A DNA stretch of 64,000 nucleotides from Acidobacteriota bacterium. Lineage in GTDB: Bacteria > Acidobacteriota > UBA6911 > RPQK01 > JAJDTT01. The translations under genes were made by a program, and so were the position numbers. The stretch lies in contig OZ242374.1 in assembly GCA_965209055.1 (NCBI GenBank), positions 5,216,001-5,280,000 of the forward strand, read 5' to 3'. This document shows positions 1-13,054 of the stretch, in pieces; position 1 is the stretch's first letter; the number at the start of each line of letters is the position of its first letter. Below the pieces are notes generated by a model. It did not search any database, was not told the origin of the DNA, and saw only the letters and a program-made list of their open reading frames with translations.

Positions 1-410
1 TCGAAAAATTCCGCCGCCAGCTTCCGGGCCATTCCTGAAAAGAGACGGCTGCCGACGGCCGCCAGGGTCCCGGCCACCAGGGCATTCCCCTGGTAGTGGA
101 CCACCGTCTCCTGGCCGTCCTCTTCCAGCCTCAGCTTTCCCTCGGCCCGGATTCCGCCCACGGTGCCGTTTCCCTGGACCCGCAGGGTCAGGTCCGAAGG
201 CTCCTTCTTGTCGCGAACTTCCACGTTTCCGCCGAAGACGCCGCGAATCGGACCGAGGGCCAACTCCAACTCCGCTCTGAAACGGTCTTCCCCGTCCGGC
301 ACCAGAGTCTTGACGCCGGGAGTGGCCCGGGCCAACACCTGGGGATCGTTCAATAGCTGCCAGACTCGGAGACGGGATAAGGCCAGTCGGTGGGTTCCCG
401 ATAGCTGCAT
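1..410 (-). CDS. coxG: CoxG/SRPBCC-family protein (CO dehydrogenase subunit G-like), runs off the left edge
   Basis: Own translation from ATG at 410: MQLSGTHRLALSRLRVWQLLNDPQVLARATPGVKTL...GNALVAGTLAAVGSRLFSGMARKLAAEFF. Typical CoxG pattern; an xdhC-family gene is nearby. Not in the ORF track. Confidence 0.8.
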   Translation of the reverse strand, partial: MQLSGTHRLALSRLRVWQLLNDPQVLARATPGVKTLVPDGEDRFRAELELALGPIRGVFGGNVEVRDKKEPSDLTLRVQGNGTVGGIRAEGKLRLEEDGQETVVHYQGNALVAGTLAAVGSRLFSGMARKLAAEFF

Positions 411-518
411 CAAGGGCCTCGAACAACGGTGACCAGAGGCGCCAACTCAGGGCGCTCCCTATTCTTCAACCGCCGTTTAGGTCTGTCAATCACTTTTCTC
501 GGAAACCAGGGGAAATTG

Positions 519-602
519 CTCCCCCACCGGCCTGGAGCGGCGATGTCCTAACCGCCGATTCTTGGACCATCGCGAAACCCGGCGCACGTGCGATTGGAAA
601 TC
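519..602 (+). repeat. Left part of a degenerate REP-like element interrupted by the integrative element
   Basis: ctcccccaccggcc-tggagcggcgatgtcctaaccgccga...gtgcGATTGGAAATC resembles the intact copies (e.g. 18744-18877) but lacks the terminal gcccctcct, which is found at 8149-8157. Confidence 0.7.
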
Positions 603-644
603 CGTTACTCTGTCCAGATGAGATAGGGGATTGGTCCTGTATTT

Positions 645-1760
645 TCAACAGTTTATCCCAATTCTCCCCTCTAAATGCTCCCTCTTGGTTCTTACTCGTT
701 GCCTGTTTGTTGCCGGTTGCGTTTGGGAGTCTTCGTTAGCCTGTGCCTCCCGAATGCTGGCCAGCGCATGAGAACTGACGTACCCCGCATACCGCATGGT
801 CGTGCTGATCGCCGAGTGGCCCATCAGCTTCTGCACCGTCCTCACGTCCACCCCCTGCATCAGCCAGTGGCTGCACCGGAATCGCCGCAGGTCGTGAAAT
901 CCGACCTCCAAGCCGACCCTCTCGCCGGCCCGGCGCAGTGGCATGTCGGGATTCACCCATCTCGTCCCGGTCCTGCTGTTGACAAAGACATATGAGGTGT
1001 TCAGGTACCGTGGGAGCCCTGCCAGATATCCGGTGGCGTACTGCGACAGCGGTATCTCCCTCGTCCTGTCGTTCTTGGTGAATTCCACCCATAGCAGCCT
1101 CCGGGATAGGTCCACCCGTTTCCAGGTGAGCGACAAAGCTTCGCCTTTTCGTATCCCCGTCTCGCCGATCGCCGCGATCATGGCTTGCAGGTAGGGATTC
1201 TCCACCGCCTCGACCAGGTCGCGGAACTGCTGGACCGTCAAAGGCCGGAAGACCTTCTTCGGCTCCTTCAGTTTGGGGAACCGAATCAACGGGTGCGTGT
1301 CCACCTCTCCGCACTCCAGCGCGTAGGAAAACAGCTTGCTGATGGCGGCAATGGCGCGGTTCACCGTGGCCGGTTTGACTTGCTTCTTCCTCTGGGCGAC
1401 GTAGCGGTGCAGGTCTTTGCGTTGGAACTCCTTCAGGGGAATGTTCCCCAGCATGGAGTTGAGGCTCTTGAACGAACCCTCATAGCTCCGCCAGGAGCGC
1501 AGACGAGGTTTGCAGTACTCCTCGAGAAAACGCTTGTAGAAGCTCTGGACCGTCCAGATGGAGCGTTTCCCGCCGGCGAGCTCCTCCTTGAGCTGCTTCC
1601 AGGTGCCGTCCAGGATGCTGGACTCGATTCGTGTTTGAAGCGCCTGTGCGCTCCGGTAGTTGGGGGCGTACATTCTGAGCCGACCGGATCCGTTCGGCCA
1701 GTACTTGCTGACGACGAAACGTCGTCTCCCCCGGCGATCCTTCACCTTGTAGATGCCCAT
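645..1760 (-). CDS. Tyrosine recombinase / phage-type integrase
   Basis: TGIRKGEALSL (R), KND (K), FHDLRR (HxxR), LMGHSAISTTMRY (H, Y). ATG at 1760 has SD GAAAGGAGG and is preferred over TTG 1829. Confidence 0.95.
   Translation of the reverse strand: MGIYKVKDRRGRRRFVVSKYWPNGSGRLRMYAPNYRSAQALQTRIESSILDGTWKQLKEELAGGKRSIWTVQSFYKRFLEEYCKPRLRSWRSYEGSFKSLNSMLGNIPLKEFQRKDLHRYVAQRKKQVKPATVNRAIAAISKLFSYALECGEVDTHPLIRFPKLKEPKKVFRPLTVQQFRDLVEAVENPYLQAMIAAIGETGIRKGEALSLTWKRVDLSRRLLWVEFTKNDRTREIPLSQYATGYLAGLPRYLNTSYVFVNSRTGTRWVNPDMPLRRAGERVGLEVGFHDLRRFRCSHWLMQGVDVRTVQKLMGHSAISTTMRYAGYVSSHALASIREAQANEDSQTQPATNRQRVRTKREHLEGRIGINC
700..718 (+). promoter_or_regulatory. Candidate integrase arm-type binding site (left)
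   Basis: tgcctgtttgttgccggtt, 17/19 identical to 8013-8031, about 100 bp inside the att core. Confidence 0.6.
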
Positions 1761-1803
1761 GCATCTCCTCCTTTCTGGATCCGGGTTCTTCGCCGTGGTG
1801 CGA

Positions 1804-1812
1804 ATCCTACCA
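1804..1812 (-). promoter_or_regulatory. Extended -10 promoter candidate for the integrase
   Basis: TGgTAGGAT on the minus strand about 45 nt upstream of ATG 1760. Confidence 0.4.
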
Positions 1813-1867
1813 CGGCTCAAGCAAATCAACGTCGGCGTTCAAGTCCTCCAGGGCGAGGACCCGGCAG

Positions 1868-2060
1868 CAACTTCTACCGCCAGTTTGGTGTGAACCCCGC
1901 CAAGGCCGGTGACAAAGCGGCCGCCAATAACTCTCGGAAGAGGTCGCTCCGCAAGTTGAAGAAGATCAAGGAGGCGTGGCCGGATCTTAACTTCGGGCTG
2001 GCGCGGGGCGTCCTCATTGTCGAGCCATCCGCTCCGTCGGTTCCCTCACTCACCCAGTAG
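1868..2060 (+). pseudogene. C-terminal remnant of a plasmid-encoded RepA-type replication protein
   Basis: FYRQFGVNPAKAGDKAAANNSRKRSLRKLKKIKEAWPDLNFGLARGVLIVEPSAPSVP* recalls the RepA_C C-terminus; no start codon or N-terminal part present. Confidence 0.6.
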
Positions 2061-2267
2061 GCGGCGCGCCGGCGGGAGGAAAGCCACGACCCTCTGGGAT
2101 CGGATCAGGGTCCGATAAGTGGATTTTATCGGACCTAAAAACTTTTCAGGAGGGGTTGTCCGGCGGCTCCGCGCTCCGTCCAGAAATGCGCCGCGCAGAT
2201 TCGCCTCGCCCATGACCGCCCCCGGGAGGTCCGTCCAGGAACGTCCGGCAGGAAAAGACTCCCCCGC

Positions 2268-5200
2268 CTATTTCACGGTCAGCCACCAGGAGGCGGCGAA
2301 GGTGGAGTTGGGGGTCAGGAACCTCAGGACGGCCTGTCCCGCCGTTACGAACGTCCGGCGGGCGGTCTCTTTCTCGACCACCAGGGTCCCGCCGATGAAC
2401 GATCGCTGGTCCTGAGTCGGGACTCCATCCGGAATCTCGATCGTGGTGAGGTCGGACGGGTCTCCGTCCCCGTAGTCCTCGGTGCAGGTCATCGTCGTCC
2501 GCTGGAACACCACCCACCCGGGAGAGGCGTTCCGGTTCGGGTCCAACCCGGCATCCAGGCCCTGGAAGTCCCCGTCGCCGGTCCGGACCGTGGGGACGAG
2601 ATCGGTCAGGTCGGACAGGCTCCACCCTTGGACCCGTGGGTTTCCGGTACAGCCCATCGGGGAAGCGTCCGGCATCACCCCGATGCCATCGACCAGAAGG
2701 TAGAGTCCCGGCAGGTGGGGCGGCACGATGGGTCCATACACGGGAGGGACCCAGACCGGGTCCGGCAATTCATTCCCCTTGGGATCGAACAGACGAACCC
2801 GGTAGATCGTCCTCGCCCCGATCAGCCGGTACTCCCCCGGCTCCCCGTAGTCATCCGCGACGGACAGGAACTGAATGCTCTGATCCATAAGGTCGTTGCC
2901 GTACAGTGAGGACCAGACGAGCGCGCCGCCGTTGACGACCCGGTTGTTCTCCGTGGGAGTCGGATCCAGGGCTACCGGCGAACCGTCGCCGCTGTCGTCT
3001 GCCCGGTTGTCCTCATCGGTAGCGGCGTTGACCGCCTCGACGCCTCCGTGCGTCCAAGGGGACAAACGGGCCTCGTTCGTGCCGTTCAGGACCGCGTAGG
3101 CGACACCGATCCGGTGGTCGGAACCGTTCTCGCCGTGCGCCGTGACGGCGGGGCGCACCAAGGCGTTGACGCCCCAGGCGATCCCGCCGGTGAGGGCGGA
3201 AACCTCGGCGGCGGTGTGATGGCCGACGAGGTCGTTGAAGGCGACGGGCTCGACGTTGTGAACCGTCAAGGGCCCGACGTTGCGGCCGGTGCGTTCTTTC
3301 TCGTATTCCTGAGGTTGTCGGTCGGTGGCGAACTGAGCGACGGTCTGGAATCCGAGATCTCCGATGGCGTCGATGTTGTCCGCGCCGTGCAGGCCCTCGG
3401 CCAGAAAGTCGGGGAAGAGGACGTTGGCCGTTTCCGGGGGGTCTCCCGGAGCGCGGTCGTCCTCTTCGGAGCGAGCCCCCACGGCGGTGACGGCGATGAG
3501 GAACCGACCCGAGTTGAACCCGGGTCGATCTTTTCCGGTCTCGTCTTTGAAACTCACGGCCGGGATCTCGTCGAAGAGGATCTCCCTCACGTTCACCGGT
3601 CCTGATCCGTCTTCCTGGTCCGTTCCCGGGATCTCGTGGTGAAAGGGATCGACCAGGACGTTGGCCCCGGCCCGCAGGACGCGCAGATACCAGAGCACCG
3701 GTTCCATCTGGTCGTTGTGGTACTGGACGAGCAGCGTGACGGCTTGCCCGTCCGCAGTGTTGGTGACGGAGATGAAGTTGCGCTGGGCGGCTTCGGTCGC
3801 TCCCAGCCATCCTGAGACGCTCCTGGAGGCCGTTGGGGCCAACGGGTCGGAGTGAGCATAAGCACGGGCGTCGATTCCCATATCGGCGAGAAACAGCAAC
3901 TGGGACCCGGGGTGATCGTCAACGGCACTTGTGCTTCCTATCGGTCCCCCGCCGGAGAGGTCCAGTCTCCCCCCCGGCAGAGAACCATCGTCGGCCAGGA
4001 TGGTCCCGGTGGCGGTCCGCCGCAGCGGGAAGACCGGAGCCCAGCCCGCCTCTGGGTCGGCCGGCAGCAGGGTCACGGTCAGGGTCTCACCATCGTCGGC
4101 AAGAGTGTCGGCTGTCGTGGGCACGCTGATGGCCGTGCTGCTCGTCGAATCATCGGTGTCGGTGTTGGCCGGGATCGTCACGCTGCCCGCCGCCGTGCCG
4201 GTGTAATCGGCGCTGCTGGCCGTGCCGTCTTCCGTCTCGTAGCTCAGCGTCAGGCCGCCCGTGGCCCCGGCCACCCCCCGCACCGGATAGGTCGAGTGCT
4301 CCACCATGAAGCTGAGCGCGCTGCCTTCGGGGGCGCTGGCGTCCTCGATGCGCAGACACGACCATACGGTCAGGTCGTCGTCCGTGCGGCGGGTCTCGAG
4401 GGCCGCCGGCAGCGTTGCGGTGGCGTCCAGATTCGTGCCGCACAGGGAGAGATCGGTCAGGTCGGCCAGACTGCCGAGTTGGCCCGGAATCCCTCCCGTG
4501 AGGGGGTTGCCGGCCAGATGCAACAATTGGAGGCTGGTCAAGGCACTCAAGTCCGGGATGCTCCCGCTGAGTCGGTTCTGGTCGAGGACGAGGCGTTGGA
4601 GGCTGGTCAGGGCACTCAAGTCCGGGATGCTCCCGCTGAGTCGGTTTCGGTTGAGATAGAGCCAAGTGAGGCTGGTCGGGAAAACGCTGGCGTCAATGCC
4701 CCCGCTCAATTCGTTGTCGAAGAGGACGAGCCTGTTGAGGCTGGTCAGGTCGCTCAGGTCCGGGATGCTCCCGCTGAGTCGGTTGCGGTGCAGGAAGAGG
4801 ACTCTCAGGCTGCCCGGGAGATCGCTGGCGTCAAGGCTCCCGGTCAATCGGTTGTCGTTGAGGATGAGGGTGTGGAGACGGGGGAGGCTGCTCAGGTCGG
4901 GGATCGGGCCGCTGAGCCGGTTGTAGCTGAGGTAGAGGATTCTGAGCTTGGAAAGGCCGCTGAGGTCGGGAAAGGGCCCGCTGAGTTGGTTGTGCTGGAA
5001 TTGGACGTTGGAAAGCTCGGTGAGACCGCTTAGGTCCGGGATTTCCCCGCTGAGCTGGTTATCGTAGAGGTGGATTTGGTTGAGATTGGTAAGAGCGCTG
5101 AGGTCCGGAATACTCCCGCTAAGTCGGTTCTGGTAGAGTTCGATTTGTCGGAGATTGGTAAGAGCGCTGAGGTCCGGAATGGACCCGCTCAACTCGTTGC

Positions 5201-5615
5201 TGGCGAGTAAGAGTTCTTCGAGGGCGGTCAGGCTGCTCAGGTCGGGAATCTCCCCGCTCAACTCGTTGCTGAAGAAGGCGAGGATTTGGAGGGCGGTCAG
5301 GCTATTCAGGGCCGCCGGAATCGTTCCGGTGAGTTGGCGGCTGCCGAGGACAAGCGAGGTGACCCGGCTCCCGGTCACGGTGATCCCGTCCCACGAGGCC
5401 ATGCTCAGGCTGTTGGCCCAGTTCAGGCTCGCCGTGCCCCGTAAGGCATCCATGAGCCCCAGCAGGGCGGCGCAGTCGCCGGCCAGGGCCGCGGGGTCGG
5501 AGGGAGCAGGTGTCACGCCGGTGATCGCGACGTCGGTCACCGCGCAAGAGGTCTGCGCACCAGCTTCGGTTGCCAGTCCCAACAGGAGGGCCGAGCTCGA
5601 CAAAGCCATCGCCAA
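2268..5615 (-). CDS. Secreted leucine-rich repeat protein (plant-type LRR + Calx-beta-like domain + unknown C-terminal domain); true start probably further upstream
   Basis: Signal peptide ending TEAGA|Q; LRRNT-like cap (DCAALL...LNW...WDGITV); 13-14 23-aa repeats LxxLxLxxNxLSGxIPDLSxL; Calx-beta-like YETEDGTASSADY...DDGETLTVTL. Confidence 0.9.
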   Translation of the reverse strand: MAMALSSSALLLGLATEAGAQTSCAVTDVAITGVTPAPSDPAALAGDCAALLGLMDALRGTASLNWANSLSMASWDGITVTGSRVTSLVLGSRQLTGTIPAALNSLTALQILAFFSNELSGEIPDLSSLTALEELLLASNELSGSIPDLSALTNLRQIELYQNRLSGSIPDLSALTNLNQIHLYDNQLSGEIPDLSGLTELSNVQFQHNQLSGPFPDLSGLSKLRILYLSYNRLSGPIPDLSSLPRLHTLILNDNRLTGSLDASDLPGSLRVLFLHRNRLSGSIPDLSDLTSLNRLVLFDNELSGGIDASVFPTSLTWLYLNRNRLSGSIPDLSALTSLQRLVLDQNRLSGSIPDLSALTSLQLLHLAGNPLTGGIPGQLGSLADLTDLSLCGTNLDATATLPAALETRRTDDDLTVWSCLRIEDASAPEGSALSFMVEHSTYPVRGVAGATGGLTLSYETEDGTASSADYTGTAAGSVTIPANTDTDDSTSSTAISVPTTADTLADDGETLTVTLLPADPEAGWAPVFPLRRTATGTILADDGSLPGGRLDLSGGGPIGSTSAVDDHPGSQLLFLADMGIDARAYAHSDPLAPTASRSVSGWLGATEAAQRNFISVTNTADGQAVTLLVQYHNDQMEPVLWYLRVLRAGANVLVDPFHHEIPGTDQEDGSGPVNVREILFDEIPAVSFKDETGKDRPGFNSGRFLIAVTAVGARSEEDDRAPGDPPETANVLFPDFLAEGLHGADNIDAIGDLGFQTVAQFATDRQPQEYEKERTGRNVGPLTVHNVEPVAFNDLVGHHTAAEVSALTGGIAWGVNALVRPAVTAHGENGSDHRIGVAYAVLNGTNEARLSPWTHGGVEAVNAATDEDNRADDSGDGSPVALDPTPTENNRVVNGGALVWSSLYGNDLMDQSIQFLSVADDYGEPGEYRLIGARTIYRVRLFDPKGNELPDPVWVPPVYGPIVPPHLPGLYLLVDGIGVMPDASPMGCTGNPRVQGWSLSDLTDLVPTVRTGDGDFQGLDAGLDPNRNASPGWVVFQRTTMTCTEDYGDGDPSDLTTIEIPDGVPTQDQRSFIGGTLVVEKETARRTFVTAGQAVLRFLTPNSTFAASWWLTVK

Positions 5616-5743
5616 GCCGCGCCAGCGAAGGCCAACACCGCCGCGGTCGCGGGAGAGCGCCGTTGCACCCCGACGGGCGGCCGGGCCAGCGCAATGCTCG
5701 GAAAAGGCAGCAAGGTCGCCAACTGGGTGCGGGCAGGCGACAG

Positions 5744-5795
5744 GGCTCCTGGCTCCTGGCTCCTGGCTCCTGGCTCCTGGCTCCTGGCTCCTGGC
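5744..5795. repeat. Heptanucleotide tandem repeat (GGCTCCT)x7 + GGC
   Basis: Seven perfect copies counted directly. Confidence 0.97.
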
Positions 5796-6274
5796 AAGAT
5801 CGTGTGCACTGAGCGTCCCCTTTAGTCAAGCATCCGTGCCGCCCCTTCCGCGGCAAATTTAGCACAGCTTGGCTCGAAAGGCCGTCACTAAGGTCAGGCA
5901 TGGGCGTGTGGCTGTCCGTCCAGCCTCCGCCAGCGGAGCGCGACGGAGCGGGGATCTCCGCGACCGGGTGTCACTCCTTGTTGACCTGGTCCAACTCCGA
6001 GCGTTTCCGAACGCCACCCAGCGGAGCGGTGTCGTGGCGTCCCCTCCCCTCGCCCAGTCGCAGATATAGGGGATTAACGGGGGCTGGGGGTCCAGACCGG
6101 ACACAGGAGAGGAAGAGCGACGAGTTCCTGGTGGAGTACCTGCGGGTGAACGAGGAGCACTGCCCCCGCTGAGTAGCCAGTAGAACAGTTCCCCCCTAAA
6201 GGCCTCTTCCAGCGGCGCGGCTCGATCCAGGTCCGCGAATCCGGCAAGGGATAGACTGGACAGGAAAGGATTCA

Positions 6275-6811
6275 ATGATCTGCTACGTGGCGACGCACAA
6301 TGAGAGTGGGAGGCGATATGTCGGCATCACCAAGGGCTCGCTGAGTCTCCGTAGGAGTACGCACGAAAGCCATGCCAAGAAGGAGGTGGACAATACCTTT
6401 TTCCACCAAGCCATCCGAGCATACGGTGCCGATGGATTTTCTTGGAAGGTGGTAGCTGAGGGAGACGAAGAAGTTATTAGGCTGCTAGAGAACGCCCTGA
6501 TTCACACATGGCAAACAAATTGGCCTGACCAAGGTTTTAACTCCAAGGGAGGGGCAGAATGGATTGACCAACCTCCGTTGACACAACCGCCAGAAGACTA
6601 TTCCGATTCGCCTTTCGGAAATGTGGATGTCTTGTACATGATGTATAGCTTGGACGCGATTGTCAGTTGGGTCGAGAGAAATTACCCGGACGGTGATCGT
6701 TGTAGCGACTTAAGGGAAATGGGCGACAGGTTACTGAAACGGCTGGATCGAATCGACCCCCCTCGTGGTCCAAGCAGCGCTGACGAACCTGACAGCCGAG
6801 AGAACCACTGA
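6275..6811 (+). CDS. GIY-YIG family endonuclease
   Basis: ICYVATHNESGRRYVGIT (GIY..YIG variant), conserved R (LRRSTH), E (LLENALI) and N (GFN); SD GGAAAGGA. Confidence 0.85.
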   Translation: MICYVATHNESGRRYVGITKGSLSLRRSTHESHAKKEVDNTFFHQAIRAYGADGFSWKVVAEGDEEVIRLLENALIHTWQTNWPDQGFNSKGGAEWIDQPPLTQPPEDYSDSPFGNVDVLYMMYSLDAIVSWVERNYPDGDRCSDLREMGDRLLKRLDRIDPPRGPSSADEPDSRENH

Positions 6812-7191
6812 GACGCCACAACATAGCCGGCCCATAGGATTTTCAGTAACCTTCTGCGGCTCACACGGCGGTGCCACTTCCGCCGCCGAAAAACTCCCGT
6901 AACAGATCAAGATGGCCTTCGCCAGAATTATTTCCGCCTCTCGGGGAAATCCTCCTCCCGCCACTCGATAGAGCAATAGACCAGGTTCTCGGGGAGCTTT
7001 TCGGTTTTGCCCAGGCAGGACGAATTCTAGGAGCCCTCTTCGAGCTTGTAGGGACCCCCCAACTCCGAAGCGGTGGTGCTTTCGTAGGTAGAGTTTCCGG
7101 GATAAGTGCCGCGTTGGGGGAATGAACTCCTTGGATGACCGCAACAAGTCTTCAGAAATCTTCGCAGGGGCCTTCCCGCAGGGATCAATTC

Positions 7192-7288
7192 GACGGGAGC
7201 GACCCCCCCAGGGGGTGTTGCGCAGATGTGAATCGCGCAACACCCCCGCGCCCGCACCGGGCAGCAAAAAGGGGGGGTCGCTCCCGTC
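7192..7288. repeat. Nested perfect inverted repeats (cruciform), possible origin
   Basis: 18-bp IR 7192-7209/7271-7288 enclosing a 13-bp IR 7211-7223/7235-7247. Confidence 0.85.
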
Positions 7289-7803
7289 CACCTCTATTTT
7301 CCCCGTGCGGCCACCCGGTGGCCGGAAATGGGGCCGTAACTGACTGAAAGAAAAGAAGCTCGGGGAGAGTGCATTTGTGAATCACCGGGACCGCTTTTTG
7401 TGAATCCACCCCCTTTGTCCCATTCACATCCCGGATCGGGCGCGAGACCCTCTTTTCGCACTGCCGAAACGAGCCTCCATTAGCCCTTGCGACTGCCAAA
7501 TGCGTTCAACGTCAATCACGACCTGGAAGGAGCGACTTTCCGCCGCTGGTTGCAACTCGACCGCCCGCTTCAGTGCGGCCGTCACCCCGCCACAAGAGAC
7601 GAATCGGGGGCAACCAGGTCTTTTTCGGCGTTACCGATGGTCACGGCGGTTTTACGCCCAACTGTCAAAACATTGGACGCGTAGGATGGCCCCTGTTGAC
7701 CTGAAACAGGCGGACGAAGGGTCTGGCGCCTTTGATTCGGAGGCGTGAGAAGGAACCCTGCGCACAATGGCGGCGCGGCGTATTTCGTGGTAGCGTCCAA
7801 CCC

Positions 7804-7974
7804 ATGATTCTGGCCCTTGCGCTTCTCCTCGCCGTCGTCGCCTGGGTCTGCTACGCCGTCGCCCGCGCCCTGGACGCGAGTCTTGAAGAGGCGGACCGCC
7901 AGGCGGCTGCGGTGTTGGCAAACGATCGTCGAATCGCATTCACGATGTCTCCGAGCATCGGGAATACGAGGTAA
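7804..7974 (+). CDS. Small single-TM hypothetical protein (56 aa)
   Basis: MILALALLLAVVAWVCYAVARALDASLEEADRQ..., hydrophobic N-terminus followed by a helical tail. Confidence 0.45.
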   Translation: MILALALLLAVVAWVCYAVARALDASLEEADRQAAAVLANDRRIAFTMSPSIGNTR

Positions 7975-8012
7975 GGGAAAAAAGCGTGTCGGCTTTCAGG
8001 AGCAAAATCTAC

Positions 8013-8031
8013 TGCCTGTTTGTCGCCTGTT
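8013..8031 (+). promoter_or_regulatory. Candidate integrase arm-type binding site (right)
   Basis: tgcctgtttgtcgcctgtt, matches 700-718, about 107 bp inside the right att core. Confidence 0.6.
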
Positions 8032-8137
8032 CAGCACGCCAGACATGGGGAGTCAACCACTTTACCGATTCGGCGAAGAACCCGGTATTCCATTGAAAAC
8101 GTTAATGTTTAGTAGTTATTGACTGAGGGACGGTTGG

Positions 8138-8157
8138 GATTGGAAATCGCCCCTCCT
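8138..8157 (+). repeat. Right att core plus the remaining end of the split REP-like element
   Basis: GATTGGAAATCgcccctcct; repeat homology stops immediately upstream. Confidence 0.75.
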
Positions 8158-8197
8158 CTTGAACCAATTCCGAGAAACCGGGACACCAAGGCAGGCA

Positions 8198-8206
8198 TGC
8201 TATGAT
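8198..8206 (+). promoter_or_regulatory. Extended -10 promoter, possibly giving a leaderless rhomboid mRNA
   Basis: TGcTATGAT ends 6 nt before GTG 8213; no SD; in-frame stop directly upstream of the GTG. Confidence 0.45.
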
Positions 8207-8212
8207 TCATGA

Positions 8213-8923
8213 GTGCGGTTTGGTTCCGGGTACCATGTGACGATCGGTCCCACCATGACCCCCATGGTCAAGTACCTGGTCATCGGCTGCGGGCTCGTCT
8301 TTCTCTACCAGTGGGCCGCCGGTCCGAGCCTCTTGCACATCTTCGGGCTGATTCCCATAGCGGTCCTGGCAAATCTCTACATCTGGCAACTGGGAACGTA
8401 CCTCTTTCTCCACGCCGACTTCTGGCACCTGTTCTGGAACATGTTCACGCTCTGGATGTTCGGGCGCGAGTTGGAACGGTACTGGGGCAGCCGGCAGTTC
8501 CTGCGCTTCTTCCTGATCACCGGAATCGGAGCGGGCCTGCTGTCGGTCGTGGCGGACCCGTGGGGAACGGTCCCCACCATCGGAGCCAGCGGGGCGGTCT
8601 ACGGGATCCTGATGGCCTACGGCATGATGTTTCCCAATCGCCGGATCTATCTCTACTTCCTTTTGCCGGTCAAGGTGAAGTACTTCGTGGCCGGCATAGG
8701 ACTCATCGCCTTCCTGTCGGCCCTCGGTTCGCCTGGAAGCACCATCGCCCACGTCGCCCACCTGGGCGGCATGATCTTCGCCTTTCTCTACCTGAAGCGC
8801 TGGCTCTCGCTCGGCGCCGTGCGCCAGGCGTACCATCGGTGGCGGCTGAAGCGCATACGCAGCCGATTCCGGGTGATGGACGAGGAGAGGCGGAACCGGA
8901 AAGACGATTACTGGATCCAGTGA
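8213..8923 (+). CDS. Rhomboid family intramembrane serine protease
   Basis: FLHADFWHLFWNM, catalytic IGASG, AHLGG, multiple TM helices. Confidence 0.95.
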   Translation: MRFGSGYHVTIGPTMTPMVKYLVIGCGLVFLYQWAAGPSLLHIFGLIPIAVLANLYIWQLGTYLFLHADFWHLFWNMFTLWMFGRELERYWGSRQFLRFFLITGIGAGLLSVVADPWGTVPTIGASGAVYGILMAYGMMFPNRRIYLYFLLPVKVKYFVAGIGLIAFLSALGSPGSTIAHVAHLGGMIFAFLYLKRWLSLGAVRQAYHRWRLKRIRSRFRVMDEERRNRKDDYWIQ

Positions 8924-8966
8924 CGAAGTGCGCCGCGAGTCCTGTTTTCATCCCTCCCACGCCGGA

Positions 8967-10085
8967 TTACGGCGCAGGGGACACTTCGTGGATCCCCCCG
9001 GATCGCGCCGCCAGGAAACCGCCGCCGAAGCCGTTGTGGACGGCCAGGATCTCCGCCAGGATGCTGACGGCGATCTGCTCCGGGCCCTCGGCTCCGATGT
9101 CCAGCCCCACCGGGTTGTGAATCCGATCCAAGGCATCCCGACGGGGGCGAAAACCCTCGTCGGCCAGCTCGTCCATGAGCTTCTGGAACCGCGGTCGAGG
9201 TCCCAACACACCCACGTAGAGAGCCCCGCTCTCCAAGGCGTAGCGGATCCCGGCGCCGTCCCGGTCCAACTGGTGGTTCATGATCAGGGCGTAGCTGCCG
9301 GCGGACATCGCCACCTTCTCCGGGAATTCCGTGGGATGGGAGATGGTGGTCCGCGCGCCCGGGAAGCGCTCCGGCCGGTTCAATGAGGGCCGGGGATCGA
9401 CGACGTTCACGGAAAAACCCAGACTCAGCGCCAACCGGACCACCGGTACCGCGTCCATGCCGGCCCCGAAGACGACCAGCTCCAAGGGGGGGCGATTGAC
9501 GTCCAGAAAGACATGGAAATCCCCGGAGGTGTAGATCCGGGACTGCGGAAGAGGCCGGCCCAGCATCTCGAGGGCCGCCGGAATCACTTCCTGGCCCAAC
9601 GCATCCCGGGCCAGGGGACCGGCCGCCGACTCGGCGGGAGCCACAAAAAGCCAACGCCCCAGGGCCTCGGATTCCGGTTCGGGCGCGCAAATGACGGCCC
9701 GTACGGCCCTTTCACCGTTCCTCAGGGCGCTCAGCCAACGTTTCCAGACCGGATCCCGTCCGATGGGTTCCAACAGGACCCGGACCACTCCCCCGCAACC
9801 CAAACGCAATCCCCAGATGGCGTCCTCGGTGAGGTCGAACACCTCCGTCGCGGCTTGTCCCGTTTTGAAGACCCGGCTGGCCGCCCGGGCGACTTCCGGT
9901 TCGAGGCACCCTCCCGAGATCATGCCCCGGAAGTCGCCGTCGGAGCCGATGACGAGCTTGGCCCCCTGCCGGCGGTACGCCGAACCGGTGATCTCGATGA
10001 CGGTCGCCAGGACGGCGCCGCGGCCGCTTTCCAGGATTTCGTCGATGGCTCCGGCCAGTTCGGCAGACTCTCTCACGATGGGCAC
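8967..10085 (-). CDS. xdhC: XdhC/CoxI family molybdenum-cofactor insertion protein
   Basis: GSAYRRQGAK, ISGGCLE, LGCGG, VFGAGMDA, PVGLDIGAEGPEQIAVSILAEI. Confidence 0.93.
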   Translation of the reverse strand: MPIVRESAELAGAIDEILESGRGAVLATVIEITGSAYRRQGAKLVIGSDGDFRGMISGGCLEPEVARAASRVFKTGQAATEVFDLTEDAIWGLRLGCGGVVRVLLEPIGRDPVWKRWLSALRNGERAVRAVICAPEPESEALGRWLFVAPAESAAGPLARDALGQEVIPAALEMLGRPLPQSRIYTSGDFHVFLDVNRPPLELVVFGAGMDAVPVVRLALSLGFSVNVVDPRPSLNRPERFPGARTTISHPTEFPEKVAMSAGSYALIMNHQLDRDGAGIRYALESGALYVGVLGPRPRFQKLMDELADEGFRPRRDALDRIHNPVGLDIGAEGPEQIAVSILAEILAVHNGFGGGFLAARSGGIHEVSPAP

Positions 10086-10105
10086 AGTCTACCGGAGAGA
10101 CGTTC

Positions 10106-10133
10106 GTAGGGGCACCCCTGGTGTGGGTGCCTC
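10106..10133 (+). repeat. GTAG-type REP hairpin (second repeat family)
   Basis: gtaggggcacccctggtgtgggtgcctc; near-identical copy at 58465. Confidence 0.7.
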
Positions 10134-10150
10134 TTCGTCCCTCTTCATGG

Positions 10151-10258
10151 GGAGCGGCGGTTTCCTAACCGTCGAACTGGAGCGGCGATTTCCAATCGCC
10201 GAACTCCTGACTAACAAACTTGGCGACGAAGACTGGGCGATTGGAAATCGCCCCTCCT
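10151..10258 (+). repeat. REP-like element with a duplicated first hairpin
   Basis: ggagcggcggtttcctaacc..., ggagcggcgatttccaatcgcc..., gggcgattggaaatcgcccctcct; abuts the metK stop codon. Confidence 0.9.
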
Positions 10259-11409
10259 TAGAGCCCGGCGGCTTGTCGCAGGGCGTCGGCCCGGTCGGTC
10301 CGTTCCCATGCAAAGCCCTCTTCCTCCCGGCCGAAGTGCCCGAAGGCGGCCGTCCGCCGGAAGATGGGACGCCTGAGCTGCAGGGTCTCGATGATGTCCC
10401 TGGGGGTCAGACGGAAGTGCTCCTGAACCAGATTTCCGATGGTCTCCTCGGCCACGGCTTCTGTCCCTTCCGCGTCCACGGTGACGGAGACCGGTTCGGC
10501 CACGCCGATGGCATAGGCCAGTTGGACCTTCAAGCGTTGGGCAAGTCCCGCGGCGACACAATTCTTGGCGATGTAACGGGCCATGTAGGAGGCGGAACGG
10601 TCGACCTTGGACGGGTCCTTCCCCGAGAAAGCGCCCCCTCCGTGCCCTCCCATGCCACCGTAGGTGTCGACGATGATCTTCCGGCCCGTCACCCCGCAGT
10701 CACCCTGAGGGCCGCCCGTCACGAACCGTCCCGTCGGATTGATGTGGATGGTCGTGCCGCCGTCCATGAGTCCGGCAGGAACAACTGCGCGAATGACCTG
10801 TTCCCGTATGCCGTCGCACAGATCCCCGTAGGAGACGTCGGGGCTGTGCTGCGTCGAGACCACGACGGTGTCGACACGGACCGGTTCCGTCCCGTCGTAT
10901 TCCACCGTCACCTGCGACTTTCCGTCGGGACGCAGCCAGTCGAGCGTTCCCTGACGCCGGGACTCGGACAGACGGCGGGTGAGGGCGTGGGCCAGCATGA
11001 TGGGCAGCGGCATCAACTGAGGGGTCTCGGTGCAGGCGTAGCCGAACATCAGACCCTGGTCGCCGGCTCCCCCGGTGTCCACTCCCAGGGCGATATCGGG
11101 CGACTGCCGGTCCACGGAGCAGATCACACCGCAGGTCTCGCAGTCGAACCCGTACTTGGCGCGCGTATATCCCACGTCCCGGATGACTTCCCGAGCGATC
11201 TTGGGATAGTCCAGAGTGCACGTGGTCGTGATCTCCCCGGCGATGACCACCAGGCCGGTCGTCACCAGGGTCTCGCAGGCCACGCGTCCCTGAGGGTCTT
11301 CCGTCAGGACCGCGTCGAGAACGCCATCGGAAATCTGGTCCGCGATCTTGTCCGGATGCCCTTCGGTGACCGATTCCGAGCTAAACAGGTGTCGACTCTT
11401 TGGCGCCAT
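10258..11409 (-). CDS. metK: S-adenosylmethionine synthetase
   Basis: [37 protein letters not shown]. Confidence 0.99.
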
Positions 11410-11551
11410 GCACTCGTCCTTTGTTTTGGGAATTTCTCAGGTGACCGCCGGAGATGGCAATAACTAGCACAGGGGCCCGCAGAGTGTCAACGCGGACGGA
11501 GCGCCGGGTCAGCCCGCCAGACTCGCGGGAAGGAAGGATACAAATCGCTCT

Positions 11552-13054
11552 CTAGGCGATGATTGTGTCGAGAACCTTTCCACCGATATCGGTGAGCCTT
11601 CTGAAGCGGCCGTCGTGGAGGTAGGTCAGCCGTTCGTCATGAAGACCGAGGAGATTCAAGATGGTCGCGTGGACGTCGCGCATGTGAATGGGCTGGCCGA
11701 TTTGGCCGATGCCGAAATCATCCGTCTCGCCGACTCGTGAACCGCCCTTGACGTCTCCGCCGGCCAGCCACATGCACAGTCCATACTGATTATGGTCCCG
11801 GCCGGGCTTGTCGCCGTACAGATCGTTGATGAATGAAGTGCGCCCCATTTCAGACGCCCAGACGACAAGCGTCTCTTCCTGCAGTCCCTCCCTCTTCAGG
11901 TCCTTGAGCAGCGCAGCGACGGGTTGATCCACCTCGATGCAGTGCCGTGGAAGCCGGCCCTTGATATTGCCGTGGTCGTCCCAACTGCTCTTGCCGTTCT
12001 CGACTCCGTGAACCACGAGACTGTAGCGGACTCCCTTTTGCACCAGGCGCTTGGCCAGCAGGCATTGACGTCCGAATGCCTCCGTAAGCGGATTGTCAAG
12101 GCCGTACATCTTCTTGGTGACTTCCGATTCCTTGGACAGATCCACAACTTCCGGGGCTTCGGCCTGCATGCGGAAAGCCAGTTCATAGGCGTTGATGCGG
12201 GCCTCCAGCTCCGCGGCGGCCGGCCGACCGGCCTGATGCCGGCGGTTGAGCCACGTCAACAGGTCGAACTCTTCACGCTGCTGTTTTCGACTGATCCTTA
12301 CCGGCGGTTTCAGGTCGAGAATGGGTGTGCCGACGGAGCGAAAGAGGGTCCCTTGATATGAAGCGGGCAAGTATCCGCTTCCGCGCACGGCCGCGCCGTT
12401 GATGGGAGCTCCCCTCGGGTCCTGAATGACGACGTAGCCGGGAAGATTCCGGTTGGAGCTCCCCAACCCGTAGGTGATCCAGGCACCGACTGAAGGGTCG
12501 CCCGGAAACTGCGAGCCGGTGTTCACGTGGAGCGTGGCCGGTCCGTGATTGTTGTTATCCACCTCGATGCCGAAAATGAATGCCAGGTCGTCGACACATT
12601 CGCTGAGGTGCGGAAACAGGGTGGAAATATGGTGTCCCGACTTACCGGCCCTCTTGAATTCCCAGGGGCTGGGAATGACCTGGTGGGGCGTATTCAGAAA
12701 TCCGTCGATTTCACCGCTGAAGCCGGTCATTTTGGGAACCCGCCGTCCCGCGTATTCCTTCAGTGCCGGCTTGTAGTCGAAGGTGTCCATCTGGCTCACG
12801 CCTCCGGACATGAAAAGGAAAATGCAGTGCTTTGCCTTGCGGGGAAAGTGCGGCGCACGGGCGGCGAGCGGACTTTGCAGCGTCGGTGACGCACCCAACC
12901 GCTCGGCGAGAATCCCGGCCAGGGCGAGGGCTCCGATCCCGTTATAGGAACGGGACAGGAATTCCCGGCGAGAGTGGGCATTGGGACCGAAACCGGAACA
13001 CTGTCCACCCCATTGATTCGCGGAAAACTGCGGAACTTCTGCTCTTTTCTTCAC
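11552..13054 (-). CDS. DUF1501 domain protein (Tat-exported, sulfatase/alkaline-phosphatase-like fold)
   Basis: SRREFL Tat motif, IFLFMSGGVSQMDTFDYKP, WDDH, SEMGRT, GRDH. Confidence 0.92.
   Translation of the reverse strand: MKKRAEVPQFSANQWGGQCSGFGPNAHSRREFLSRSYNGIGALALAGILAERLGASPTLQSPLAARAPHFPRKAKHCIFLFMSGGVSQMDTFDYKPALKEYAGRRVPKMTGFSGEIDGFLNTPHQVIPSPWEFKRAGKSGHHISTLFPHLSECVDDLAFIFGIEVDNNNHGPATLHVNTGSQFPGDPSVGAWITYGLGSSNRNLPGYVVIQDPRGAPINGAAVRGSGYLPASYQGTLFRSVGTPILDLKPPVRISRKQQREEFDLLTWLNRRHQAGRPAAAELEARINAYELAFRMQAEAPEVVDLSKESEVTKKMYGLDNPLTEAFGRQCLLAKRLVQKGVRYSLVVHGVENGKSSWDDHGNIKGRLPRHCIEVDQPVAALLKDLKREGLQEETLVVWASEMGRTSFINDLYGDKPGRDHNQYGLCMWLAGGDVKGGSRVGETDDFGIGQIGQPIHMRDVHATILNLLGLHDERLTYLHDGRFRRLTDIGGKVLDTIIA

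Follow-up and report, generated by a model that had tools for sequence, protein, structure and literature searches.

The 64,000-nucleotide stretch of contig OZ242374.1 analyzed here (the window), from the genome of an Acidobacteriota bacterium (6.08 Mb in one contig, 62.8% G+C), carries at a coxG-rhomboid locus a 7.5-kb integrative element (positions 603-8148) bracketed by two copies of an 11-mer, GATTGGAAATC, that lie within one repetitive extragenic palindromic (REP) hairpin. This element was very probably inserted by its own tyrosine integrase into the loop of a REP that was already in place, and its lineage appears to descend from integrases of tRNA-Arg genes that were redirected to REPs. 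The evidence comes from the anatomy of the insertion, from empty sites in related genomes, from a family of 26 such elements in the same genome and from a tRNA relic that each of them carries. Coordinates are positions in the window unless given as genome positions.

Anatomy of the insertion

A first-pass annotation of the window had placed the first arm and spacer of a REP to the left of position 592 and its missing end to the right of 8148, and comparison with REP copies elsewhere in the genome bore this out: window 534-602 aligns to the first hairpin and spacer of a ~80-bp repeat, of which 8149-8156 is the missing foot. The 11-mer was found on the forward strand at 592-602 and 8138-8148 and, as the same annotation had reported, at eight further places in the window, giving ten matches where 0.05 were expected, a number reached in none of 100 shuffles. 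The eight other copies sit in a ~80-bp two-hairpin repeat of the form ggag-cggcggtttcctaaccgccg, spacer, gggcGATTGGAAATCgccc-ctcc. The insertion and its immediate surroundings are laid out as follows.

3-413, minus strand: CoxG family gene, left host flank, running off the window start (PF06240, 2.9e-25 on the same gene, L002:826-1266(-)).
534-591, plus strand: left part of the host REP, with foot ggag, first hairpin ggcgatgtcctaaccgcc, spacer and outer stem of the second hairpin (74-87% in alignments to other REP copies of the genome, of which many begin at 534; orthologous REP in relative G008).
592-602, plus strand: core copy GATTGGAAATC at the left junction (attL), 11 bp, with a putative 7-bp overlap, TTGGAAA, at 594-600 (register from element E3141 and the type-B elements).
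603-637, minus strand: element left arm, a decayed mimic of a tRNA-Arg 5' half (D-arm and 5' strand of the anticodon stem; matches tRNA-Arg(TCT), with an intact tRNA at the equivalent place in relative G003).
643-655, plus strand: motif TTTCAACAGTTTA, resembling a binding site for integration host factor (IHF), overlapping the last codons and stop of the integrase gene; position conserved in the left-arm alignment.
645-1760, minus strand: tyrosine integrase, 371 aa from an ATG, in a reading frame open to 1829 from a TTG (PF00589, 4.9e-26; SAM-like N-terminal domains).
700-714, plus strand: left-arm copy of a 15-bp motif, TGCCTGTTTGTTGCC, a candidate arm-type integrase site within the integrase 3' end (invariant block in 26/26 left arms).
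7973-8137, plus strand: element right arm, conserved in 26/26 elements by their alignment, with the second copy of the 15-bp motif at 8013-8027.
8138-8148, plus strand: core copy GATTGGAAATC at the right junction (attR), read directly from the sequence.
8149-8156, plus strand: right part of the host REP, closing stem and foot gcccctcc, from the REP comparison.
8213-8923, plus strand: rhomboid protease, right host flank (PF01694, 2.8e-28).

Empty sites in related genomes

Window 1-9600 was searched against 30 relatives, eight of them from the same genus, and in 8/8 of the latter both flanks lay side by side at the coxG-rhomboid locus with the element absent. The conclusions drawn here make no use of the unpublished genome G016. 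The empty allele that had been predicted was found in G008 with exactly the predicted boundaries. The match to window 1-602 ends at position 12470 of the G008 contig and the match to 8138-9600 starts at 12460, and because the two matches overlap at 12460-12470, the flanks share exactly the 11-mer. The intergenic sequence of G008 is the uninterrupted orthologous REP, whose spacer resembles the diverged spacer of the window. Therefore, the REP predates the insertion of the element. The six other same-genus genomes (all but G008 and G005) have a different intergenic sequence at this spot, with no REP in it.

Elements of the same family occupy other loci of the genome (see below). For one of them, E4644 (core TAGGAAA, type B), the hairpin rebuilt by removing the element, gtgggggtaggaaaacccccac, is intact at the orthologous site in G001 and present with one change in G004. 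The flanks of E835, an element with a type-C core, are non-syntenic in the relatives, so that no empty site can be read there for a type-C element. All three insertion sites examined in relatives (3/3) were occupied in this genome only. As a side observation, the flanks of E835 (L025, genome 834000-840700) lie at separate loci in relatives; in G006 (G006:C8:58956-60599) a gene of the E835 left flank adjoins an element right end in the opposite orientation, an arrangement that may reflect a rearrangement between elements or the re-use of one hairpin in both orientations.

A family of 26 elements with several cores

The integrase is present in 26 near-full-length genomic copies, 85-100% identical, each of which heads an element of 2.7-25 kb. 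All 26 elements share the left arm with the integrase gene (window 608-1868), a non-coding module (7168-7591) and the right arm (7973-8137). Upon removal of the element in silico, a perfect hairpin was rebuilt in 25/25 cases, with stems of 5-16 bp, and the core was identical at both ends in all 25. Split REPs, which the first-pass annotation had proposed looking for around integrase homologues, thus flank every testable copy in this genome. The 26th element, E6077, stands outside this count in that the single contig ends inside it (genome 6074457-6077182) and cuts off its left junction, probably owing to a break in the assembly at this repeat. Two minimal elements in a second genome have a core and a hairpin half at both junctions, and the integrase-side junction has the same composition at ten further loci in other genomes of the genus (12 loci in all).

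The cores fall into four types: type A, GATTGGAAATC, which the window's element shares with three more and which has a variant, GATTAGAAATC; type B, TAGGAAA; type C, GGGACTGTTAGTCC; and type D, GGGACTAACAGTCCC. With the single-base variant counted separately, the genome has five core variants. Five further cores were found in the genus, including GACTGGAAGTC, GACTAGAAATC, GACAGGAAAGTC, GACTAAAAGTC and GACTGAAAGTC, each followed by a REP-like half hairpin. The identity between attL and attR extends over 7, 10, 11, 14 or 15 bp. Exactly 7 bp are shared in four elements (TTGGAAA in E3141; TAGGAAA in E2810, E4644 and E3711), and when positions are counted from the conserved left arm, the shared stretch takes in the same seven in 25/25 elements. 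E3141 has the attachment site of the window's element (attP) inserted in an unrelated stem, gtggggg...cccccac, with TTGGAAA alone in common. Types C and D are inserted into one hairpin family in opposite directions; the seven bases at the center of the type-C core are the reverse complement of those of type D. Both patterns would fit a 7-bp overlap, defined by predicted cleavage points, that sets the site as well as the direction of insertion.

The integrase tree and the att types agree only in part. The integrase of E4661, which has type-D arms, is 98% identical to that of E2828 (type C), and E3141 groups with type A. An initial expectation of one integrase clade per att type was dropped, as the types follow the tree only partly, and we read the mismatch as a probable exchange of arms between elements.

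Descent from tRNA-Arg integrases

On the minus strand, the left arm beside the core reads as a tRNA 5' half that matches positions ~4-41 of tRNA-Arg(TCT) at 87-97%. Against the genome's tRNA-Arg(TCT), identity reaches 87% over 31 nt for the arm of the window's element and 96.6% over 29 nt for that of E4644. In the tRNA register, the seven shared bases are the anticodon loop. This tRNA copy, carried by every element, is a decayed, non-functional relic: ARAGORN called no tRNA in window 1-12000, hence none at the junction, and 0/26 attL junctions lie at a predicted tRNA gene.

In G003, of the same genus, the integrase has a single full copy (82% identity), located in a genuine tRNA-Arg(TCT) gene. 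Next to the integrase gene stands the complete tRNA, and ~47 kb away lies the right arm, followed by a 42-bp repeat of the tRNA 5' half and anticodon loop. The integrase also adjoins a co-directional tRNA-Arg in G010 and G038 (69-70% identity), and among homologues at 34-82% identity a tRNA gene lies on the 3' side of the integrase in 21/23 (7 Arg, 10 Leu, 3 Thr and 1 Asp). None of three loci at 89-91% integrase identity (0/3) has a tRNA gene at the integrase. The loop of tRNA-Arg, CTTCTAA, is one change away from the overlap of E1143 (TTTCTAA), two from that of the window's element (TTTCCAA) and three from that of type B (TTTCCTA). By these comparisons, REPs appear to have replaced a tRNA gene as the landing site of the family. 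Homologous integrases residing in tRNAs had been listed by the first-pass annotation as evidence against REP targeting; such a homologue does exist, the 82% relative in tRNA-Arg(TCT), and what it reveals is the origin of the REP lineage, without contradicting REP targeting.

In the G010 relative, the displaced tRNA 5' half expected at attR was not found, the second hit on its contig being a separate complete tRNA-Arg(TCT). Also at this locus (L028, G010:C21:311000-330000; 3385-3432 and 10280-10356), a tRNA-Arg(TCG) lies by the integrase, and on the opposite side, at a distance of 6.9 kb, there is a displaced copy of the 3' half of this tRNA with the loop. Two islands of different kinds may thus stand in tandem at this tRNA. 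Genome-wide, ARAGORN returned seven 88-nt tRNA-Leu(TAA) calls and several over-long tRNA calls. Two of these calls lie inside elements (2104898 in E2095 and 5203736 in E5198); they could be tRNAs carried as cargo, or the structured module could have been miscalled as a tRNA.

Proposed mechanism and points against it

We propose that the element's tyrosine integrase would act by conservative site-specific recombination into the loop of the REP hairpin gggcGATTGGAAATCgccc between coxG and rhomboid, with strand exchange across a 7-bp overlap (TTGGAAA here) at the anticodon-loop position of the tRNA-Arg 5'-half relic. Its ancestors would have been integrases that entered the anticodon loop of tRNA-Arg and supplied a replacement 5' half. 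A REP hairpin resembles an anticodon stem-loop, having a GC stem and a short loop, and because of this resemblance changes in the overlap would have redirected descendants to other REP loop variants. Since the targets are multicopy, the elements would behave like transposons (26 copies) and scatter defense cargo.

Several observations weigh against this reading. At the locus of E2974 (type D), the orthologous hairpin of five relatives has the same stem with a different loop (AGGAAA and others, not TAACA); because the relatives' loops differ, no identical pre-existing site is demonstrated there. Intact hairpins are rarer than occupied ones for type B (0 vs 5) and for types C and D (5-8 vs 16). 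Some 93 hairpins with GGCGG...CCGCC stems carry the TTGGAAA/TTTCCAA loop, and 0/5 elements with that overlap sit in them, so that the overlap is not the sole determinant of the target. Excision was looked for in assembled contigs of public runs, four of which were compared, and neither a circular attP junction (among the joints listed) nor an excised allele was found in the contigs of the source sample. No excisionase, nor any protein family besides the integrase, was found by Pfam in the 2.7-kb minimal elements (six open reading frames of E2974); a very small or novel excisionase may still be encoded there. Finally, the genome is a metagenome assembly with a contamination estimate of 7.4%, and its contig ends inside one element.

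A bolder version, which we advance tentatively and would not be surprised to see fail, is that the element is a re-programmable transposon, whose enzyme takes nearly any anticodon-like hairpin with a GC stem and whose REP family and orientation are set mainly by the 7-bp overlap of attP. If so, a change of one or two bases in attP would give access to a fresh set of landing pads, the loops would form a series from the CTTCTAA of tRNA-Arg through TTTCTAA, TTTCCAA and TTTCCTA to unrelated loops (CTAACAG), and the elements would ride on repeats spread by REP-associated tyrosine transposases (RAYTs), with REPs becoming docking sites for defense islands.

The integrase and its arms

The integrase matches PF00589 over residues 197-348 with 92 bits (cut-off 27.1; E 4.9e-26) and has an N-terminal SAM-like core-binding domain (PF02899, 25.6 bits against a cut-off of 22.3; PF14659, 23.3 bits against 22.6). 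The motifs GIRKGE, HDLRR, GHS and MRYAGY can be read by eye in its translation as a candidate R..K..HxxR..H/W..Y set. Its closest solved structures are XerA/XerC-like proteins and XerD, and its N-terminal extension of ~85 aa matched no Pfam or NCBIfam family, arm-binding families included.

The repeated arm motif noted in the first-pass annotation as 19 bp (700-718 and 8013-8031) is real and specific as 15 bp, TGCCTGTTTGTYGCC, at 700-714 and 8013-8027. Genome-wide it occurs 53 times, of which 51 lie inside the 26 elements and 2 in remnants, and it is present once per arm in 25/26 elements; we regard it as a candidate arm-type site. The IHF-like motif TTTCAACAGTTTA was likewise present at 643-655 as described, with its position kept across the left arms; as it also overlaps the end of the integrase gene, it is no more than a possible IHF site. 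With a palindromic core, a left arm of ~110 bp, a right arm of ~165 bp and one 15-bp motif per arm, the layout of attP looks lambda-like.

We considered whether the target might instead be recognized as a folded single-stranded hairpin, in the fashion of integron attC sites, and chosen mainly by its structure and loop sequence. That every one of the 25 rebuilt targets forms a perfect hairpin, its stem up to 16 bp long, that the stem sequence can differ fully while the loop is kept (E3141 and the window's element), and that the attP core is itself palindromic all agree with such a mode. It is nonetheless unlikely, given that a full core copy stands at both junctions and the target is rebuilt exactly, as duplex exchange predicts, that the ancestors use a duplex tRNA gene (G003), and that the integrase scores 63.8 bits with the integron-integrase model TIGR02249, far under its cut-off of 265.

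Mobility and copy number

Two pairs of elements are nearly or fully identical. E4497 and E6056 agree over 2790/2790 bp, and a single base in 2656 separates E3007 from E6077; in both pairs the flanks differ right up to the core. The number of integrase copies is sharply uneven in the genus, with 26 here, 11 in G004 and 0-3 in the other six genomes. The rise may have come about by re-insertion behind the replication fork, by replication of an excised circle or by re-entry from other cells. Integrase frames are open in 19/26 copies and contain in-frame stops in the other 7.

These data bear on the possibility that the elements are fossils, the 26 copies being old or the product of segmental duplication and no longer moved by the integrase. 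Such a state would account for the stops in 7/26 integrase matches, for three copies split by a reverse-transcriptase insertion and for the lack of an excision product among the contigs of public runs. Against this stand the twin copies whose flanks differ up to the core, the 3/3 examined sites occupied in this genome only, the 19 open frames and the uneven copy number, and we hold it to be quite improbable that the family has long ceased to move.

Two joints in the public runs concern the window's locus. A joint of 566 to 8138, seen in four of four runs, was considered as an empty site and rejected; its 16 inserted letters match the REP copy at genome position 698341. A joint of 567 to 8138 with 25 other letters occurs only in two sponge-metagenome runs, has just 21 letters on one side and was not counted; it may represent the empty locus of a related strain. 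Separately, the integrase genes of E5304, E783 and E3711 are interrupted at the same position (window equivalent ~1750) by an insertion of ~1.9 kb (genome 5306068-5307983, 784165-786078 and 3708107-3710022). The insertion, whose 499-aa product is a reverse transcriptase (RVT_1, 2.8e-36), looks like a group II intron that homes into the integrase gene.

REP targets and an adjoining RAYT-like gene

Genome-wide, GATTGGAAATC occurs in 104 copies, 80 of them inside an intact hairpin, GCGATTGGAAATCGC; related hairpins that differ in stem and loop number in the hundreds. A RAYT-like Y1-transposase gene was found at genome 1142970-1143203(-), in a 307-aa open frame (PF01797, 30.8 bits against a cut-off of 23), with HUH and Y..NP motifs read by eye in its translation. 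Just to one side of it lie two GCGATTAGGAAATCGC hairpins, at 1143679 and 1143725, and E1143 is inserted in the next REP; no such hairpin was found on the other side within the 2-kb stretch scanned. From their copy number and the adjoining RAYT-like gene, we take the targets to be genuine REPs. The many landing pads suggested by the first-pass annotation are thus there for the type-A core, with its 80 intact hairpins, and less so for the other types, of which there are 0-8 intact copies.

The same counts bear on whether the element itself supplies the hairpin halves, as terminal inverted repeats, and the free hairpins are its footprints or miniature derivatives. For types B, C and D the hairpins are more often occupied than intact, and the relatives of the E2974 locus have a hairpin with another loop, as this account would allow. 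It is very improbable all the same: for types A and B an intact hairpin stands at the orthologous site in element-free relatives, 80 type-A hairpins compare with 4 type-A elements, one attP sits in two unrelated stems (the window's element and E3141), and the hairpins adjoin a gene like RAYT, a known disperser of REPs. Conservative tyrosine recombination, moreover, leaves no footprint. That two independent decayed REPs merely happen to bracket the island, with no site-specific insertion, is hardly credible even with an 11-mer this common (104 copies, often in doublets) and a left-half spacer diverged from the REP consensus, since the locus in G008 holds a single unbroken REP that has this diverged spacer too, between flanks joined by exactly 11 shared bases, which excludes independent decay as raised in the first-pass annotation, and since conserved arms abut the core on both sides in 25/25 copies.

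Relation to known systems

Tyrosine integrases are textbook agents of single-site, single-copy integration, usually into tRNA genes, and Williams reportedly described in 2002 sublocation classes of integrases within such genes. The window's family shares with tRNA islands and prophages the enzyme class, an overlap at the 7-nt loop between symmetric stem arms and the carriage of a partial tRNA copy, and the sister element in G003, with its 42-bp repeat of the tRNA-Arg(TCT) 5' half, is an ordinary member of that group. Islands of this kind are the subject of the Islander database (PMC4383910). Unlike these, the family studied here has a multicopy extragenic palindrome as its target, a tRNA copy that is decayed, and 26 copies where one per genome would be usual.

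REP-specific insertion is otherwise known from the insertion sequences IS1397/ISKpn1, ISPpu9/ISPpu10 and IS621, which use DDE or IS110-type DEDD transposases and, in the case of IS621, a guide RNA. The likeness lies in the specificity for REP palindromes and the many intergenic landing sites, whereas the sole conserved gene of our elements is a tyrosine recombinase accompanied by att arms, with no DDE or DEDD transposase. Tyrosine transposons of the Tn916/Tn1549 type, in the relevant portions of PMC12229494, tolerate non-identical coupling sequences and prefer AT-rich sites, and CTnDOT, in those of PMC2936281, tolerates mismatches. They too combine a tyrosine recombinase with many sites and stem-loop symmetry around a short central segment, and differ in that the attL and attR cores are identical in 25/25 elements here and the target is a GC-rich REP.

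In integrons, attC sites lie in cassette arrays beside intI and recombine as folded single strands, while the hairpins of the present genome are dispersed REPs beside a RAYT-like gene. The likeness is that IntI, too, is a tyrosine recombinase acting on multicopy imperfect palindromes able to fold as hairpins; PMC4792948 concerns such systems. With lambda-type integrases the elements appear to share long asymmetric arms, one motif per arm, an IHF-like motif and a palindromic core; they differ in the absence of an excisionase gene from our searches and in the ~85-aa N-terminal region, which has no arm-binding family match. The targets themselves resemble the REP/RAYT systems (PMC2817692, PMC3333891), being short GC-rich palindromes, often inverted doublets, in hundreds of copies, with two beside a Y1-transposase-like gene; a RAYT would here be the supplier of targets and not the mover of the elements.

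Full-text literature searches returned no tyrosine integrase that targets REPs (hits: RAYTs, Tn916, integrons and an unrelated RNA-guided system), which is not proof that none has been described. The family departs from ordinary integrases in the class of its targets, in its copy number and in how varied its overlaps are, the enzyme and att layout being ordinary. The lineage is caught between two states within one genus, with one member in tRNA-Arg, dozens in REP hairpins and at least ten cores, and so offers a natural series for how integrase specificity evolves and for the respective shares of overlap sequence and protein. For REPs it points to a new role, that of docking sites through which defense islands can multiply in a chromosome. 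The integrase with ~300 bp of att sequence may also make a tool whose target can be changed by editing seven bases, and the 2.7-kb minimal elements would ease its testing.

Cargo and the conserved module

The remaining features of the window's element are its cargo and the module shared by the family.

2268-5615, minus strand: cargo gene for a 1115-aa leucine-rich-repeat protein (LRR_4, 1.6e-31; LRR_8, 1.6e-14).
5859-6275, minus strand: cargo open reading frame, 138 aa, with no Pfam or NCBIfam match.
6275-6811, plus strand: cargo open reading frame, 178 aa, with a weak GIY-YIG nuclease match (PF01541, 1.6e-4, just under cut-off; TIGR01453, 8.9e-5, below cut-off).
7168-7591, plus strand: conserved non-coding module with a long three-way-junction fold at its start, in 26/26 elements and ~40 other places.

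Elements carry up to ~22 kb of cargo. Among 78 larger open reading frames scanned from 17 other elements, the commonest products were subunits of type I restriction-modification systems (ResIII 5, HSDR_N 5, N6_Mtase 4, Methylase_S 3), and type IIG enzymes, GmrSD, AbiTii, NotI and a Cas1 were also found; no conjugation genes were seen among the 78. By these family matches, the cargo seems to consist mostly of restriction-modification and other defense genes. The leucine-rich-repeat protein has an N-terminus, MAMALSSSALLLGLATEAGAQ, that looks signal-peptide-like by eye. The sister element at genome 1118780-1127395 holds a copy that is 93-97% identical. The protein is of a eukaryote-like repeat type, and the public runs holding the stretch are mostly labeled as sponge metagenomes.

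The module is present in ~65 genomic copies with a sharp start at 7168-7170 and variable ends. It matched no Rfam family, and its open reading frames no Pfam family; a hit to Rfam Plastid-psbJ-5 at 27-30 bits, against a gathering score of 53, was taken as a chance match to a long hairpin. The module opens with a three-way-junction fold closed by a stem of ~17 bp, with compensatory changes in the alignment, and some of its copies outside elements form units of ~1.15 kb bounded by inverted copies of the module's first 50 nt.

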